Positions 12,301 through 35,285 of a stretch of DNA of 64,000 nt are shown here, in pieces. The notes below the pieces were generated by a model. The model was given only the letters and a program-made list of their open reading frames with translations. It searched no databases and was not told the origin of the DNA. The translations under genes were made by a program, and so were the position numbers. Origin of the DNA: Escherichia coli. Lineage in GTDB: Bacteria > Pseudomonadota > Gammaproteobacteria > Enterobacterales > Enterobacteriaceae. Each line of letters starts with the position of its first letter. Position 1 is the first letter of the stretch. The stretch is taken from assembly GCF_048403405.1 (NCBI RefSeq), contig NZ_CP183129.1. One strand, 5' to 3'.

Positions 12301-12419
12301 AATCTCGCGCTAACAACCTGGAATCGAGCCGTCATACTACGGCGCAACGCCCTATAAAGTAAACGATGACCCTTCGGGAACTTCAGGGTAAAATGACTAT
12401 CAAAATGTGAATTGTAGCT

Positions 12420-12453
12420 GACCTGGGACTTGTACCCGGGTCGGTATTTTTTT
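12420..12453 (+). terminator. Intrinsic terminator in the greA leader (3' end of the GraL leader RNA)
   Basis: Imperfect hairpin GACCTGGG-ACTTGTA-CCCGGGTC followed by GGTATTTTTTT, about 95 bp upstream of the greA ATG; consistent with the known terminated greA leader transcript. Confidence 0.5.
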
Positions 12454-14228: not shown

Positions 14229-14327
14229 CCGGGAGATTTCAGACGAAAGTTTGAAAGATGCTGGATATAGAGTATCCTGACGCTGTTTTTAACACAGTTG
14301 TAATAAGAGGTTAATCCCTTGAGTGAC

Positions 14328-16262
14328 ATGGCGAAAAACCTAATACTCTGGCTGGTCATTGCCGTTGTGCTGATGTCAGTATTCCAGAGCTTTGGGCCCA
14401 GCGAGTCTAATGGCCGTAAGGTGGATTACTCTACCTTCCTACAAGAGGTCAATAACGACCAGGTTCGTGAAGCGCGTATCAACGGACGTGAAATCAACGT
14501 TACCAAGAAAGATAGTAACCGTTATACCACTTACATTCCGGTTCAGGATCCGAAATTACTGGATAACCTGTTGACCAAGAACGTCAAGGTTGTCGGTGAA
14601 CCGCCTGAAGAACCAAGCCTGCTGGCTTCTATCTTCATCTCCTGGTTCCCGATGCTGTTGCTGATTGGTGTCTGGATCTTCTTCATGCGTCAAATGCAGG
14701 GCGGCGGTGGCAAAGGTGCCATGTCGTTTGGTAAGAGCAAAGCGCGCATGCTGACGGAAGATCAGATCAAAACGACCTTTGCTGACGTTGCGGGCTGCGA
14801 CGAAGCAAAAGAAGAAGTTGCTGAACTGGTTGAGTATCTGCGCGAGCCGAGCCGCTTCCAGAAACTCGGCGGTAAGATCCCGAAAGGCGTCCTGATGGTC
14901 GGTCCTCCGGGTACCGGTAAAACGCTGCTGGCGAAAGCGATTGCAGGCGAAGCGAAAGTTCCGTTCTTTACTATCTCCGGTTCTGACTTCGTCGAAATGT
15001 TCGTCGGTGTGGGTGCATCCCGTGTTCGTGACATGTTCGAACAGGCGAAGAAAGCGGCACCGTGTATCATCTTTATCGATGAAATCGACGCCGTAGGCCG
15101 CCAGCGTGGCGCAGGCCTGGGCGGTGGTCACGATGAACGTGAACAGACTCTGAACCAGATGCTGGTTGAGATGGATGGCTTCGAAGGTAACGAAGGTATC
15201 ATCGTTATCGCCGCGACTAACCGTCCGGACGTTCTTGACCCGGCGCTGCTGCGTCCTGGCCGTTTCGACCGTCAGGTTGTGGTTGGCTTGCCAGATGTTC
15301 GCGGTCGTGAGCAGATCCTGAAAGTTCACATGCGTCGCGTACCATTGGCACCCGATATCGACGCGGCAATCATTGCCCGTGGTACTCCTGGTTTCTCCGG
15401 TGCTGACCTGGCGAACCTGGTGAACGAAGCGGCACTGTTCGCTGCTCGTGGCAACAAACGCGTTGTGTCGATGGTTGAGTTCGAGAAAGCGAAAGACAAA
15501 ATCATGATGGGTGCGGAACGTCGCTCCATGGTGATGACGGAAGCGCAGAAAGAATCGACGGCTTACCACGAAGCGGGTCACGCGATTATCGGTCGCCTGG
15601 TGCCGGAACACGATCCGGTGCACAAAGTGACGATTATCCCACGCGGTCGTGCGCTGGGTGTAACTTTCTTCTTGCCTGAGGGCGACGCAATCAGCGCCAG
15701 CCGTCAGAAACTGGAAAGCCAGATTTCTACGCTGTACGGTGGTCGTCTGGCAGAAGAGATCATCTACGGGCCGGAACATGTTTCTACCGGTGCGTCCAAC
15801 GATATTAAAGTTGCGACCAACCTGGCACGTAACATGGTGACTCAGTGGGGCTTCTCTGAGAAATTGGGGCCACTGCTGTACGCGGAAGAAGAAGGTGAAG
15901 TGTTCCTCGGCCGTAGCGTAGCGAAAGCGAAACATATGTCTGATGAAACTGCACGTATCATCGACCAGGAAGTGAAAGCACTGATTGAGCGTAACTATAA
16001 TCGTGCGCGTCAGCTTCTGACCGACAATATGGATATTCTGCATGCGATGAAAGATGCTCTCATGAAATATGAGACTATCGACGCACCGCAGATTGATGAC
16101 CTGATGGCACGTCGCGATGTACGTCCGCCAGCGGGCTGGGAAGAACCAGGCGCTTCTAACAATTCTGGCGACAATGGTAGTCCAAAGGCTCCTCGTCCGG
16201 TTGATGAACCGCGTACGCCGAACCCGGGTAACACCATGTCAGAGCAGTTAGGCGACAAATAA
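14328..16262 (+). CDS. ftsH: ATP-dependent zinc metalloprotease FtsH (HflB)
   Basis: 644 aa from ATG 14328 ([19 protein letters not shown]...), AAA Walker A GPPGTGKT, zinc site HEAGHA; the ORF-track start at 14319 is an in-frame TTG 3 codons upstream. Confidence 0.96.
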
Positions 16263-19104: not shown

Positions 19105-19191
19105 GCCGAGGTGGTGGAATTGGTAGACACGCTACCTTGAGGTGGTAGTGCCCAATAGGGCTTACGGGTTCAAGTCCCGTCCTCGGTACCA
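19105..19191 (+). tRNA. leuU: tRNA-Leu (anticodon GAG)
   Basis: 87-nt sequence GCCGAGGTGGTGGAATTGGTAGACACGCTACCTTGAGGTGGTAGTGCCCAATAGGGCTTACGGGTTCAAGTCCCGTCCTCGGTACCA with long variable arm, anticodon loop CTTGAGG and encoded CCA; directly downstream of secG. Confidence 0.97.
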
Positions 19192-22971: not shown

Positions 22972-23048
<77 letters not shown>

Positions 23049-23170
23049 CTTTCCCTTAGAGTCCTTTTTCAAATATACTGTGAAGACTTCGGCCTTCGTA
23101 GTGGGATTTGAAAAAATCCTTCTGGAAAGTGCTCCAGACCGCAGTTGCGGTTATAGGGTTCAGTTATATA

Positions 23171-23197
23171 AAGCCCCGATTTATCGGGGTTTTTTGT
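23171..23197 (+). terminator. Intrinsic terminator/attenuator between metY and rimP
   Basis: CCCCGAT-TT-ATCGGGG hairpin followed by TTTTTTGTT. Confidence 0.65.
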
Positions 23198-23254
23198 TAT
23201 CTGACTACAGAATAACTGGGCTTTAGGCCCTTTTTTTATGTCTTGGGGGTGGGC

Positions 23255-23707: not shown

Positions 23708-23734
23708 TAGTCTGGATGAGGTGAAAAGCCCGCG

Positions 23735-25222
<1,488 letters not shown>

Positions 25223-27932: not shown

Positions 27933-28009
27933 GTAGGCCGGATAAGGCTTTTACGCCGCATCCGGCAGCCGTTGCCTGATGCGACGCTCGCGCGTCTTAT
28001 CAGGCCTAC
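27933..28009. repeat. REP/BIME element (two inverted REP palindromes) in the infB-rbfA spacer
   Basis: GTAGGCCGGATAAGGC...GCCGCATCCGGCAG and GCCTGATGCGACGCTCGCGCGTCTTATCAGGCCTAC match the E. coli REP consensus. Confidence 0.8.
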
Positions 28010-28479: not shown

Positions 28480-29423
28480 TGAGTCGTCCTCGTCGTCGCG
28501 GTCGCGACATTAACGGCGTGTTGTTGCTGGATAAACCGCAGGGTATGTCCAGCAACGATGCGCTGCAAAAAGTGAAACGGATTTATAACGCCAACCGTGC
28601 TGGGCATACCGGTGCGCTGGACCCGCTGGCAACTGGCATGTTGCCAATTTGCCTCGGGGAAGCGACGAAGTTTTCCCAGTATCTGCTGGACTCCGACAAA
28701 CGCTATAGGGTGATTGCGCGTCTTGGACAGCGTACCGATACGTCTGACGCCGACGGACAAATCGTTGAAGAACGTCCGGTAACCTTTAGTGCAGAGCAAC
28801 TGGCGGCGGCGCTGGATACTTTCCGTGGCGATATCGAACAGATCCCTTCGATGTATTCAGCACTGAAATACCAGGGCAAAAAACTGTACGAATATGCGCG
28901 TCAGGGCATTGAAGTACCGCGTGAAGCGCGCCCGATTACCGTTTATGAATTGCTGTTTATTCGCCACGAAGGCAATGAGCTGGAGCTGGAAATTCACTGC
29001 TCAAAAGGCACTTATATCCGCACCATCATTGATGACCTGGGTGAAAAACTCGGTTGTGGCGCGCATGTTATTTACCTGCGTCGTCTGGCGGTAAGTAAAT
29101 ATCCGGTTGAACGGATGGTGACCCTGGAACATCTGCGTGAACTGGTTGAACAAGCCGAACAGCAGGATATTCCAGCCGCGGAGTTACTTGATCCATTACT
29201 GATGCCAATGGACAGTCCAGCTTCGGACTACCCGGTGGTGAATCTTCCGTTAACGTCTTCTGTTTACTTCAAAAATGGTAACCCGGTTCGTACATCCGGT
29301 GCGCCGCTGGAAGGACTGGTTCGCGTTACAGAAGGTGAGAACGGCAAGTTTATCGGTATGGGCGAAATTGACGATGAAGGCCGCGTCGCGCCTCGTCGCC
29401 TGGTGGTTGAATACCCGGCGTAA
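28479..29423 (+). CDS. truB: tRNA pseudouridine(55) synthase TruB
   Basis: 314-aa ORF, ATG overlaps the rbfA stop (TAATG); catalytic Asp context [12 protein letters not shown]. Confidence 0.97.
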
Positions 29424-29434
29424 TGTTAACCGTC

Positions 29435-29463
29435 TTGCGATAACAGGTCGCTACGAGTAGAAT
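29435..29463 (+). promoter_or_regulatory. Candidate sigma70 promoter of rpsO (-35 TTGCGA, 17-bp spacer, -10 TAGAAT)
   Basis: TTGCGA at 29435-29440 and TAGAAT at 29458-29463, about 110 bp upstream of the rpsO ATG. Confidence 0.5.
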
Positions 29464-29475
29464 ACTGCCGCTTAA

Positions 29476-29841
<366 letters not shown>

Positions 29842-29861
29842 TTCTTGCGAGTTTCAGAAAA

Positions 29862-29886
29862 GGGGGCCTGAGTGGCCCCTTTTTTC
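29862..29886 (+). terminator. rpsO intrinsic terminator
   Basis: GGGGCC-TGAGT-GGCCCC hairpin followed by TTTTTTT, 20 nt after the rpsO stop. Confidence 0.8.
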
Positions 29887-30087
29887 AAGCTGACGGCAGC
29901 AATTCACTGGAAACTAATGTATTGTTGCTATGAATGATCTTCCGTTGCAGAGGTTCGCGCGGCTAATGAGAGGCTTTACCCACATTGGGCTGGGTTAGGG
30001 TTGTCATTAGTCGCGAGGATGCGCAGAAGATCGGGTATTAACACCAGTGCCGTAAGGTACTGTCTAAGAAAGAGAAAGGATATTACA

Positions 30088-32223
30088 TTGCTTAATCCGA
30101 TCGTTCGTAAATTCCAGTACGGTCAACACACCGTGACTCTGGAAACCGGCATGATGGCTCGTCAGGCTACTGCTGCTGTTATGGTTAGCATGGATGACAC
30201 CGCGGTATTCGTTACCGTTGTTGGTCAGAAAAAAGCCAAACCAGGTCAGGACTTCTTCCCACTGACCGTTAACTATCAGGAGCGTACCTACGCTGCTGGT
30301 CGTATCCCGGGTAGCTTCTTCCGTCGTGAAGGCCGCCCAAGCGAAGGCGAAACCCTGATCGCGCGTCTGATTGACCGCCCGATTCGCCCGCTGTTCCCGG
30401 AAGGCTTCGTCAACGAAGTTCAGGTTATCGCCACCGTGGTTTCTGTTAACCCGCAGGTTAACCCGGATATCGTCGCGATGATTGGTGCTTCCGCAGCACT
30501 GTCTCTGTCTGGTATTCCGTTCAATGGTCCGATTGGTGCTGCCCGCGTAGGTTACATCAATGACCAGTACGTACTGAACCCGACTCAGGACGAGCTGAAA
30601 GAGAGCAAACTGGATCTGGTTGTTGCCGGTACTGAAGCCGCTGTACTGATGGTTGAATCTGAAGCTGAACTGCTGAGCGAAGACCAGATGTTGGGCGCAG
30701 TAGTGTTCGGTCATGAACAACAGCAGGTTGTCATTCAGAACATCAATGAACTGGTGAAAGAAGCCGGTAAACCGCGTTGGGACTGGCAGCCGGAGCCGGT
30801 AAACGAAGCGCTGAACGCGCGCGTTGCTGCACTGGCTGAAGCTCGTCTGAGCGATGCTTACCGCATCACCGACAAACAAGAGCGTTATGCGCAGGTTGAT
30901 GTCATCAAATCTGAAACCATCGCGACGCTGCTTGCTGAAGATGAAACCCTGGACGAAAACGAACTGGGTGAAATTCTGCACGCTATCGAGAAAAACGTTG
31001 TTCGTAGCCGCGTACTGGCAGGCGAACCGCGTATCGACGGTCGTGAAAAAGATATGATTCGTGGTCTGGATGTGCGTACTGGCGTGCTGCCGCGTACTCA
31101 CGGTTCTGCGCTGTTCACCCGTGGTGAAACTCAGGCGCTGGTTACCGCAACGCTGGGTACTGCACGTGACGCGCAGGTTCTTGATGAACTGATGGGCGAA
31201 CGTACTGACACCTTCCTGTTCCACTACAACTTCCCTCCGTACTCCGTAGGCGAAACCGGCATGGTCGGTTCTCCGAAGCGTCGTGAAATTGGTCACGGTC
31301 GTCTGGCGAAGCGCGGCGTGCTGGCAGTCATGCCGGATATGGACAAATTCCCGTACACCGTACGTGTTGTGTCTGAAATCACTGAATCCAACGGTTCCTC
31401 TTCTATGGCTTCCGTGTGCGGCGCGTCTCTGGCGCTGATGGACGCAGGTGTGCCGATCAAAGCTGCTGTTGCGGGTATCGCAATGGGTCTGGTGAAAGAA
31501 GGCGACAACTACGTTGTACTGTCTGACATTTTGGGCGACGAAGATCACCTGGGCGATATGGACTTCAAAGTTGCGGGTTCCCGCGACGGTATCTCTGCAT
31601 TGCAGATGGATATCAAAATTGAAGGTATCACCAAAGAGATCATGCAGGTTGCGCTGAACCAGGCTAAAGGTGCGCGTCTGCATATCCTGGGCGTAATGGA
31701 ACAGGCGATCAACGCGCCGCGTGGCGATATCTCTGAGTTCGCTCCGCGTATCCATACCATCAAGATCAACCCGGACAAGATCAAAGACGTTATCGGTAAA
31801 GGCGGTTCTGTTATCCGTGCTCTGACCGAAGAAACTGGCACCACCATCGAAATCGAAGATGACGGTACTGTGAAAATCGCAGCGACCGACGGCGAGAAAG
31901 CGAAACATGCTATTCGTCGTATCGAAGAGATCACTGCAGAAATCGAAGTGGGCCGCGTCTACAATGGTAAAGTGACCCGTATCGTTGACTTTGGCGCATT
32001 TGTTGCCATCGGCGGCGGTAAAGAAGGTCTGGTACACATCTCTCAGATCGCTGACAAACGCGTTGAGAAAGTGACCGATTACCTGCAGATGGGTCAGGAA
32101 GTACCGGTGAAAGTTCTGGAAGTTGATCGCCAGGGCCGTATCCGTCTGAGCATTAAAGAAGCGACTGAGCAGTCTCAACCTGCTGCAGCACCGGAAGCTC
32201 CGGCTGCTGAACAGGGCGAGTAA
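30088..32223 (+). CDS. pnp: Polynucleotide phosphorylase
   Basis: 711 aa from TTG 30088 ([31 protein letters not shown]...), with RNase PH, KH and S1 domains; PNPase is known to use a UUG start; ORF-track start 30001 is an upstream extension. Confidence 0.96.
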
Positions 32224-32231
32224 GGTTGCCA

Positions 32232-32260
32232 TTTGCCCTCCGCTGCGGCGGGGGGCTTTT
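32232..32260 (+). terminator. Candidate intrinsic terminator after pnp
   Basis: GCCCTCCGC-TGC-GGCGGGGGGC hairpin (one mismatch) followed by TTTT. Confidence 0.5.
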
Positions 32261-32331
32261 AACCGGGCAGGACGCCTTGTTAGCAACCGGGAACAGGACG
32301 TTCATTCAACCGTGGTCTTCGGGAGTGGGAA

Positions 32332-33322: not shown

Positions 33323-33403
33323 ATGAAAATTGCTGATCAATTTCATGATGAGTTATGTAGACTGGCCGCCATTAATTTTGAGGCACACGTACTACATGGC
33401 TGA
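33323..33403 (+). CDS. yrbN: Small ORF (26 codons) overlapping the deaD start, candidate YrbN
   Basis: ATG 33323 to TGA 33401-33403 encodes [26 protein letters not shown]; its stop overlaps the deaD ATG (ATGGCTGA); position corresponds to the annotated E. coli small protein YrbN, recalled from memory. Confidence 0.5.
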
Positions 33404-35285
33404 ATTCGAAACCACTTTTGCAGATCTGGGCCTGAAGGCTCCTATCCTTGAAGCCCTTAACGATCTGGGTTACGAAAAACCATCTCCAATTCAGGCAGAG
33501 TGTATTCCACATCTGCTGAATGGCCGCGACGTCCTGGGTATGGCCCAGACGGGGAGCGGAAAAACTGCAGCATTCTCTTTACCTCTGCTGCAGAATCTTG
33601 ATCCTGAGCTGAAAGCACCACAGATTCTGGTGCTGGCACCGACCCGCGAACTGGCGGTACAGGTTGCTGAAGCAATGACGGATTTCTCTAAACACATGCG
33701 CGGCGTAAACGTGGTTGCCCTGTACGGCGGCCAACGTTATGACGTGCAATTACGCGCCCTGCGTCAGGGGCCGCAGATCGTTGTCGGTACTCCGGGCCGT
33801 CTGCTGGACCACCTGAAACGTGGCACTCTGGACCTCTCTAAACTGAGCGGTCTGGTTCTGGATGAAGCTGACGAAATGCTGCGCATGGGCTTCATCGAAG
33901 ACGTTGAAACTATTATGGCGCAGATCCCGGAAGGTCATCAGACCGCTCTGTTCTCTGCAACCATGCCGGAAGCGATTCGTCGCATTACCCGCCGCTTTAT
34001 GAAAGAGCCGCAGGAAGTGCGCATTCAGTCCAGCGTGACTACCCGTCCTGACATCAGCCAGAGCTACTGGACTGTCTGGGGTATGCGTAAAAACGAAGCA
34101 CTGGTACGTTTCCTGGAAGCGGAAGATTTTGATGCGGCGATTATCTTCGTTCGTACCAAAAACGCGACTCTGGAAGTGGCAGAAGCCCTTGAGCGTAACG
34201 GCTACAACAGTGCCGCGCTGAACGGTGACATGAACCAGGCGCTGCGTGAGCAGACACTGGAACGACTGAAAGATGGTCGTCTGGACATCCTGATTGCGAC
34301 CGACGTTGCGGCCCGTGGCCTGGACGTTGAGCGTATCAGCCTGGTAGTTAACTACGATATCCCGATGGATTCTGAGTCTTACGTTCACCGTATCGGTCGT
34401 ACTGGTCGTGCGGGCCGTGCTGGCCGTGCGCTGCTGTTCGTTGAGAACCGTGAGCGTCGTCTGCTGCGTAACATTGAACGCACCATGAAGCTGACCATTC
34501 CGGAAGTTGAACTGCCGAACGCAGAACTGCTGGGCAAACGTCGTCTGGAAAAATTCGCCGCTAAAGTACAGCAGCAGCTGGAAAGCAGCGATCTGGATCA
34601 ATACCGTGCACTGCTGAGCAAAATTCAGCCGACTGCAGAAGGTGAAGAGCTGGATCTCGAAACTCTGGCCGCCGCACTGCTGAAAATGGCACAGGGTGAA
34701 CGTACTCTGATTGTTCCGCCAGATGCGCCGATGCGTCCGAAACGTGAATTCCGTGACCGTGATGACCGTGGTCCGCGCGATCGTAACGACCGTGGCCCGC
34801 GTGGTTACCGTGAAGATCGTCCGCGTCGTGAACGTCGTGATGTTGGCGATATGCAGCTGTACCGCATTGAAGTGGGCCGCGATGATGGTGTTGAAGTTCG
34901 TCATATCGTTGGCGCGATTGCTAACGAAGGTGACATCAGCAGCCGTTACATTGGTAACATCAAGCTGTTTGCTTCTCACTCCACCATCGAACTGCCGAAA
35001 GGTATGCCGGGTGAAGTGCTGCAACACTTTACGCGTACTCGCATTCTCAACAAGCCGATGAACATGCAGTTACTGGGCGATGCACAGCCGCATACTGGCG
35101 GTGAGCGTCGTGGCGGTGGTCGTGGTTTCGGTGGCGAACGTCGTGAAGGCGGTCGTAACTTCAGCGGTGAACGCCGTGAAGGTGGTCGTGGTGATGGTCG
35201 TCGTTTTAGCGGCGAACGTCGTGAAGGCCGCGCACCGCGTCGTGATGACTCTACCGGTCGTCGTCGTTTCGGTGGTGATGCGTAA
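33396..35285 (+). CDS. deaD: Cold-shock DEAD-box RNA helicase DeaD (CsdA)
   Basis: 629 aa from ATG 33396 ([33 protein letters not shown]...), motifs [25 protein letters not shown] and RGG-rich C-terminal tail; ORF-track start 33330 is an upstream extension. Confidence 0.97.

Follow-up and report, generated by a model that had tools for sequence, protein, structure and literature searches.

The whole 64,000-nt stretch of Escherichia coli DNA analyzed here, which we call the window, carries truB-rpsO-pnp between positions 29400 and 30400. Many E. coli chromosomes match this region at 100% identity, and the locus was found in 5424 of 5426 complete E. coli genomes. Between rpsO, which encodes ribosomal protein S15, and pnp lies a spacer (29842..30087) of 246 nt, measured from the rpsO stop codon, TAA at 29839-41, which forms its 5' edge, to the pnp UUG. 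A preliminary description of this DNA had given a spacer of 246 bp and a UUG start at 30088, and the list of open reading frames (ORFs) and the K-12 annotation bear out both figures. That description had let the spacer run from the rpsO terminator; the length is right, but it is the distance from the stop codon. The terminator itself had been placed at 29862..29886, correct to within one base, and a 44-mer quoted from the leader was located at 29957..30000. The features of the spacer and its flanks are collected in Table 1.

Table 1. Features of the rpsO-pnp spacer and its flanks, in window positions.
Feature	Position	Strand	Basis
rpsO (ribosomal protein S15) CDS	29572..29841	+	ORF list; annotated in identical E. 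coli records and in K-12
sraG, 216-nt primary antisense sRNA	29858..30073	-	K-12 ncRNA b4449 (3311183..3311398), which maps without indels
Rfam-modelled part of SraG	29858..30029	-	RF00082, 162.2 bits, model positions 1-177 of 177
Bidirectional Rho-independent terminator: T1 of rpsO (+), SraG terminator (-)	29862..29885	both	terminator scan (minus-strand match), folding
Small predicted hairpin GGCAGCAAU...AUUGUUGCU	29895..29929	+	fold -11.0 kcal/mol, z -3.4
pnp-proximal promoter P2, putative approximate start	29930..29933	+	two estimates from numbers stated in PMC5029454
Long imperfect 97-nt hairpin "R", RNase III substrate of the pnp 5' leader	29936..30032	+	fold, covariation, literature
GGA motif in the hairpin 3' arm, candidate upstream CsrA site	30017..30019	+	motif count; putative assignment
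pnp translation initiation region: Shine-Dalgarno AAAGGA 30075-80, UUG 30088-90	30075..30090	+	sequence, K-12 CDS, toe-print
SraG promoter -10 region, reading TGTAATAT	30080..30087	-	sequence and published start site

The K-12 MG1655 annotation shows an identical 246-nt spacer and a pnp of 711 aa that starts at the equivalent UUG. When positions 29820-30120 of the window were aligned to K-12, we found zero indels and two substitutions: T29986 and G29988 are both A in K-12. Both substitutions fall in the apical loop of the long hairpin, and the entire hairpin stem is identical between the two sequences. Counting genomes that match the 97-nt hairpin at 99% or more, we found the loop allele of the window (T, G) in 755 of 5425 complete genomes (about 14%), making it the minority allele. 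Most remaining E. coli genomes have about two mismatches over the 97 nt, as in K-12. The differences are placed in the segment that RNase III is predicted to excise, and no functional difference is expected between the alleles. The window allele allows an alternative CCCA/UGGG pairing within the loop, with the minimum-energy fold unaltered, and further apical-loop variants were seen in E. albertii and in E. coli E69.

The terminator just downstream of rpsO has a stem of 29863-68 with 29874-79 and a loop at 29869-73, followed by a U-run at 29880-85 on the plus strand and by CUUUU at 29862-58 on the minus strand, where it reads GGGGCC-ACTCA-GGCCCC then CTTTT. Its fold energy is -19.9 kcal/mol on the plus strand and -15.7 kcal/mol on the minus strand. 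The small hairpin that follows overlaps the DNA of promoter P2, and it would therefore occur only in read-through rpsO-pnp transcripts.

Other regulatory RNA elements were also seen in the window. The S15 leader, an autoregulatory element of rpsO (Rfam RF00114, 117.6 bits), lies just upstream at 29514..29628 on the plus strand, and a P1-like rpsO promoter, TTGCGA-17-TAGAAT, is found at 29435-29463. The further Rfam matches, all on the plus strand, are the greA leader (RF01769), the rimP leader (RF01770), naRNA4/CssrE (RF02564) and two tRNAs, at 12331..12452, 23137..23237, 27936..28006, 19105..19188 and 22972..23045.

SraG, its promoter and P2

The preliminary description had pointed to an antisense small RNA, SraG, in this spacer and had left its ends unplaced. 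The minus strand matched the Rfam SraG model RF00082 over 30029..29858 with a score of 162.2 bits (gathering score 50, E 1.3e-30), and the K-12 sraG annotation (b4449) maps to the same place, so the claim of an antisense SraG holds. From the K-12 gene and a published circular RT-PCR, the ends can be set on the minus strand at 30073 (5') and 29858 (3'). The 5' nucleotide is a U near the edge of the pnp Shine-Dalgarno sequence, and the 3' end lies at the terminator. In K-12, polyphosphatase-dependent circular RT-PCR gave a primary transcript of 216 nt (Fontaine 2016, PMC5029454) and put its true start 42 nt upstream of that of SraG-S (PMC5029454). The 174-nt SraG-S is the originally annotated form, with a start at about 30031, and the part covered by RF00082 corresponds roughly to it. 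The published 5' end adjoins the Shine-Dalgarno sequence without overlap, and the published terminator is the same bidirectional element as rpsO T1 (PMC5029454).

In the window, SraG is antisense to rpsO and pnp, both on the plus strand, and lies between the two genes. Its 3' end, mapped from K-12 to 29858, falls at the Rho-independent terminator common to rpsO. Its promoter and start region is assigned by sequence identity, with window positions 30033-30120 the same as in K-12. SraG is complementary to most of the pnp leader, hairpin R included. A full-length antisense SraG match with an S15 leader upstream was found in 18 of 18 other diverse Enterobacterales loci; conservation of the terminator was judged from these full-length Rfam matches, which take in the terminator stem. 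At the Yersinia pestis locus (L065, 3991..5964), the distance between S15 leader and SraG is about 1.7 kb, compared with about 0.2-0.35 kb at the other loci. This spacing is consistent with an insertion element in the Y. pestis rpsO-pnp spacer, which is mentioned by Fontaine 2016 (PMC5029454).

The SraG -10 box was positioned manually, with the published start as reference. Read along the minus strand, TGTAATAT-CCTTTC leads into the start U at 30073, so that TAATAT (30085..30080) covers -12 to -7 relative to the start and falls in the interval from the pnp Shine-Dalgarno sequence to the UUG. The element can be read in two ways, either as TAATAT or as TGTAAT combined with a TTTACG that lies 18 bp upstream of it. 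Any -35 element would lie within pnp codons 5-8. A -10 mutation near the Shine-Dalgarno sequence, and not overlapping it, abolishes the 216-nt SraG (Fontaine 2016, PMC5029454). On sequence inspection, no convincing -35 box was seen for P2 or for the SraG promoter, and a consensus promoter scan of 29400-30500 called the rpsO P1-like site only, and neither P2 nor the SraG promoter. Of the promoter and terminator pair for which the preliminary description had proposed a minus-strand search, the terminator was detected and the promoter went uncalled by the consensus scan.

The -10 box is patchily conserved. At the same position, TAATAT is kept in 37 of 110 Enterobacterales species among the matches listed and TAnnnT in 49 of 110. 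The commonest alternatives among the matches listed are TTCTAT and TTCTGT (loci L003-L122), and the adjacent Shine-Dalgarno AAGGA recurs in most variants at these loci. Only the long, 216-nt form of SraG represses pnp (Fontaine 2016, PMC5029454). The patchy -10 conservation together with this restriction of repression to the long form raises a tentative and rather doubtful suggestion, that the regulatory long SraG could have arisen in some lineages only, on top of an older RNase III/PNPase switch acting in cis. If it were true, the "SraG" detected by Rfam in many genera might be untranscribed, or might start elsewhere and have no regulatory activity.

For P2, two estimates of the start were derived from numbers stated in PMC5029454. 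The published pnp RNA "1-234" ends at nt 79 of the ORF (30166), which gives a start at 29933. The published RNase III sites at +39 and +77, combined with the 2-nt stagger in the fold, give 29929-30. The estimates disagree by 3-4 nt, and we infer a start at 29930-33.

Structure and conservation of the leader hairpin

The preliminary description had called the leader structured and named it as the site of RNase III processing, with RNA folding proposed as a check. Over 29887-30100 the predicted energy is -73.8 kcal/mol, compared with -57.2 +/- 4.1 for dinucleotide shuffles (z -4.05; 0 of 200 shuffles). The dominant element is the 97-nt hairpin, which also forms in the whole-leader fold and which alone, at 29936-30032, reaches -46.1 kcal/mol against -28.4 +/- 3.2 for shuffles (z -5.5). 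The leader is therefore structured as described, and the hairpin matches the published RNase III entry site (PMC5029454). The description had named the absence of a stable hairpin and of an antisense transcript in start-site data as what would count against it, and neither applies: the hairpin stands at z -5.5, and the SraG start is known in K-12 from the published RT-PCR.

From its base, the hairpin consists of a lower stem with small bulges (29936-49 with 30020-32), a 4-nt bulge GAGG (29950-53), a 3-bp helix (29954-56 with 30017-19), an invariant 12-bp helix (29958-69 with 30004-15), and an upper stem with three single mismatches that ends in an 8-nt apical loop (29983-90). By its agreement with the K-12 leader, we identify this hairpin with the RNase III site known as "R" in published work on the pnp leader.

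We scanned species-representative genomes once with a pattern holding both arms of the core helix, GGTTCGCGCGGCTAA N{25,55} TTAGTCGCGAGGATG. Both arms were exact in at least 120 loci from as many species-representative Enterobacterales genomes, and the genera among the matches listed are Escherichia, Salmonella, Citrobacter, Klebsiella, Enterobacter, Pantoea, Erwinia, Serratia, Yersinia, Photorhabdus, Brenneria and Sodalis. The matches listed yielded 111 distinct sequences, which formed the comparative set (alignment A2, MAFFT). The RNAalifold consensus on these 111 listed sequences recovers the hairpin, and when the same sequences were folded individually a single long hairpin was obtained in 111 of 111.

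Covariation was scored on 26 pairs of the 111 listed sequences; the MAFFT alignment is not structure-aware at the lowest stem and the apical region, and the lowest stem (29936-45 with 30024-32) was excluded from scoring. In this set, 98.6% of cells are paired; sliding the partner by 1-3 columns lowers this share to 33-46%. Changes on both sides of a pair occur in 69 cells, compared with 18 +/- 6.5 in shuffles (0 of 500), a statistic inflated by the relatedness of the sequences, so that the slid controls and the specific compensatory pairs are more reliable. Six pairs show change on both sides. For example, the G29947-C30022 pair is GC in 80, AU in 24 and GU in 7 of the 111 listed sequences, and rungs of the upper stem vary among CG, UA, UG, AU and GC. 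Because the search pattern itself fixed 15 of the 26 scored pairs, the covariation rests on the other pairs. We conclude that the hairpin structure has been maintained in evolution, with variable rungs that covary and core pairs that are fixed by the search pattern.

The next question is which strand this structure serves. Watson-Crick covariation looks alike on either strand, but G.U pairs are informative, since the complement of a G.U pair is an A.C mismatch. Of the 4108 pairs predicted on the pnp strand of the 111 listed sequences, 601 (about 15%) are G.U and would be A.C mismatches in SraG. Hairpin energies average -46.3 kcal/mol on the pnp strand and -28.2 kcal/mol on the SraG strand, and the pnp-strand hairpin is the stabler in 111 of 111 sequences. 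From the asymmetry in energy and in G.U pairs, we conclude that the fold is selected mainly on the pnp mRNA and that the SraG stem is its weaker mirror image. The converse, that the hairpin is kept mainly as the structural core of SraG with the pnp-strand fold as the mirror image, has several observations on its side: the Rfam SraG model encodes the same stem, SraG alone is cut in vitro by RNase III at sites mirroring RIII1 and RIII2 (PMC5029454), and the minus-strand hairpin also beats its shuffles (-33.4 kcal/mol, z -4.6). Besides the strand asymmetry, however, the SraG -10 box TAATAT is present in just 37 of the 110 species listed while the hairpin core is unchanged in every listed locus, and SraG inactivation shifts pnp by 1.3-fold only (PMC5029454). 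The constancy of two G.U pairs inside the core helix is no evidence on this point, because the search pattern fixed that helix. We consider selection mainly for the antisense RNA unlikely.

Two other accounts of the conserved stretch were weighed against a regulatory RNA hairpin. The ORF list contains an open frame from an in-frame TTG at 30001 into pnp (a 740-aa ORF), and the pnp frame is stop-free from 29938, as it would be if the region upstream of the UUG were coding, either for a longer pnp product or for a leader peptide, and conserved as protein. Yet among the matches listed, an in-frame stop separates the hairpin from the UUG in 94 of 106 distinct related leaders, and pnp begins with UUG in all 110 of the 110 related loci in which the N-terminus was found. 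In addition, K-12 pnp is annotated as starting at the UUG equivalent to 30088, a Shine-Dalgarno sequence AAGGA lies 7 nt upstream of it, the 30S toe-print falls on this UUG (Fontaine 2016, PMC5029454), and the variable positions covary as RNA pairs rather than codons. An N-terminally extended PNPase starting at TTG 30001 was rejected on the in-frame stops, the conserved UUG and the toe-print, and protein coding as the cause of the conservation is very improbable. A generic repeat (REP- or BIME-like) or a second terminator would likewise place a long inverted repeat in an intergenic spacer just past a terminator. We rejected both because E. coli genomes have a median of one copy of the hairpin, always at the rpsO-pnp locus, and because its stem is not followed by a U-run. 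At the hairpin, Rfam reports SraG only and no repeat family, and the rpsO-pnp context with the S15 leader upstream is the same in every related locus checked, which leaves next to no room for an element that is not gene-specific.

A stop-free stretch of 745 codons runs antisense to pnp, in codon register, at 30064..32301 on the minus strand, and appears in the ORF list as a 740-aa ORF. None of the 711 codons of pnp is TTA, CTA or TCA, and three other long plus-strand frames (23720-25222, 14307-16262 and 33327-35285) have antisense open frames of 439-560 codons. A real gene in this antisense frame was rejected, and we read the frame as an artefact of codon bias.

Proposed regulation and comparison with known systems

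PNPase is a major 3'-5' exoribonuclease that is needed for growth in the cold, stress survival and virulence, and its level is tightly set by the pnp leader. The pnp 5' UTR is a textbook case of layered post-transcriptional control by RNase III, PNPase, RNase E, CsrA and an antisense RNA. Taken together, we put at about 95% the probability that the spacer is the E. coli rpsO-pnp regulatory region working on two strands, a function transferred to the window from K-12 by sequence identity. The anatomy, fold, conservation, covariation, strand bias and family membership were computed here, and the steps of cleavage, decay and translation come from the literature.

The literature on pnp autoregulation includes Portier 1987, Jarrige 2001 and Carzaniga 2009, as cited in PMC5029454. 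In the K-12 pnp leader, RNase III makes two staggered cuts at +39 and +77 from P2 (PMC5029454). As outlined in PMC5029454, RNase III excises the top of the hairpin, PNPase removes the paired 5' strand, and RNase E and CsrA silence the mRNA; the same outline has PNPase repressing its own translation when RNase III is absent. Two CsrA sites, one of them over the Shine-Dalgarno sequence, are bound only after processing (Park 2015 as summarised in PMC5029454). SraG represses by blocking 30S binding (PMC5029454), and inactivation of its promoter raises pnp mRNA and PNPase about 1.3-fold (Fontaine 2016, PMC5029454). The main text of a transcriptome-wide paper on RNase III cleavage mentions neither pnp nor sraG.

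Mapped onto the window, these steps suggest the following model. The pnp mRNA would arise either from the rpsO promoter by read-through of T1 or from P2 (start near 29930-33), and both types of transcript would fold into the 97-nt hairpin at 29936..30032. RNase III would cut at staggered positions high in the invariant helix, which would release a stem-loop of about 38 nt; in the predicted fold, the cuts probably fall near 29968-72 and 30006-10, at the top of the 12-bp helix. A short 5' fragment would remain paired to the new 5' end of the message until PNPase degraded it, and the single-stranded leader thus exposed would open the message to attack by RNase E. The processed leader (30007-30087) contains exactly two GGA motifs, at 30017 and, within the Shine-Dalgarno sequence, at 30078, and CsrA bound to both would block translation from UUG 30088. 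The GGA at 30017 is a candidate for the upstream CsrA site and would be base-paired until RNase III and PNPase have acted. Because PNPase drives the exposure of the leader, more PNPase would mean less pnp mRNA. On the other strand, SraG (30073 to 29858) would pair up to the edge of the Shine-Dalgarno sequence, which would block 30S binding and create new RNase III sites, adding about 1.3-fold extra repression.

Hairpin and SraG are both already known and already present in Rfam and in the K-12 annotation, and they open no new question. The additions made here are minor: the strand-bias figures, the invariance of core helix and UUG in the sampled Enterobacterales, and the patchy SraG -10 box. 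The value of the analysis lies in the correct annotation of sraG and of the cis-regulatory hairpin. K-12 has an sraG ncRNA, whereas most RefSeq E. coli records have no annotated feature under the hairpin/SraG stretch 29936..30032. This is an annotation gap for a validated sRNA and not a biological difference. In the window, sraG should therefore be annotated at 30073..29858 on the minus strand, and the hairpin at 29936..30032 as a cis-regulatory feature.

Compared with site "R" of the K-12 pnp leader, the window shares the locus, the stem sequence, the UUG, the Shine-Dalgarno sequence and the placement of the hairpin between T1 and pnp, and it differs only at T29986 and G29988 of the apical loop. 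With SraG (RF00082; K-12 b4449; Argaman 2001; Fontaine 2016, PMC5029454) it shares the full-length match, the antisense position, the bidirectional terminator and the promoter region. The window differs from K-12 SraG by two loop bases only, the pnp-leader substitutions seen from the opposite strand. A functional parallel is found in the rnc leader (rncO), where RNase III cuts a hairpin in the 5' UTR and autoregulates (review PMC8708148). In both systems, a ribonuclease-dependent cut in the leader hairpin strips the downstream message of a stabilising 5' structure and so lowers its stability (PMC8708148). At rncO, however, the cutting enzyme is also the regulated enzyme, whereas at pnp RNase III cuts and PNPase senses, PNPase being the sensor because it removes the strand of the residual duplex. 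The rncO leader has no sequence relationship to the pnp leader, and the likeness is one of functional analogy and not of family membership.
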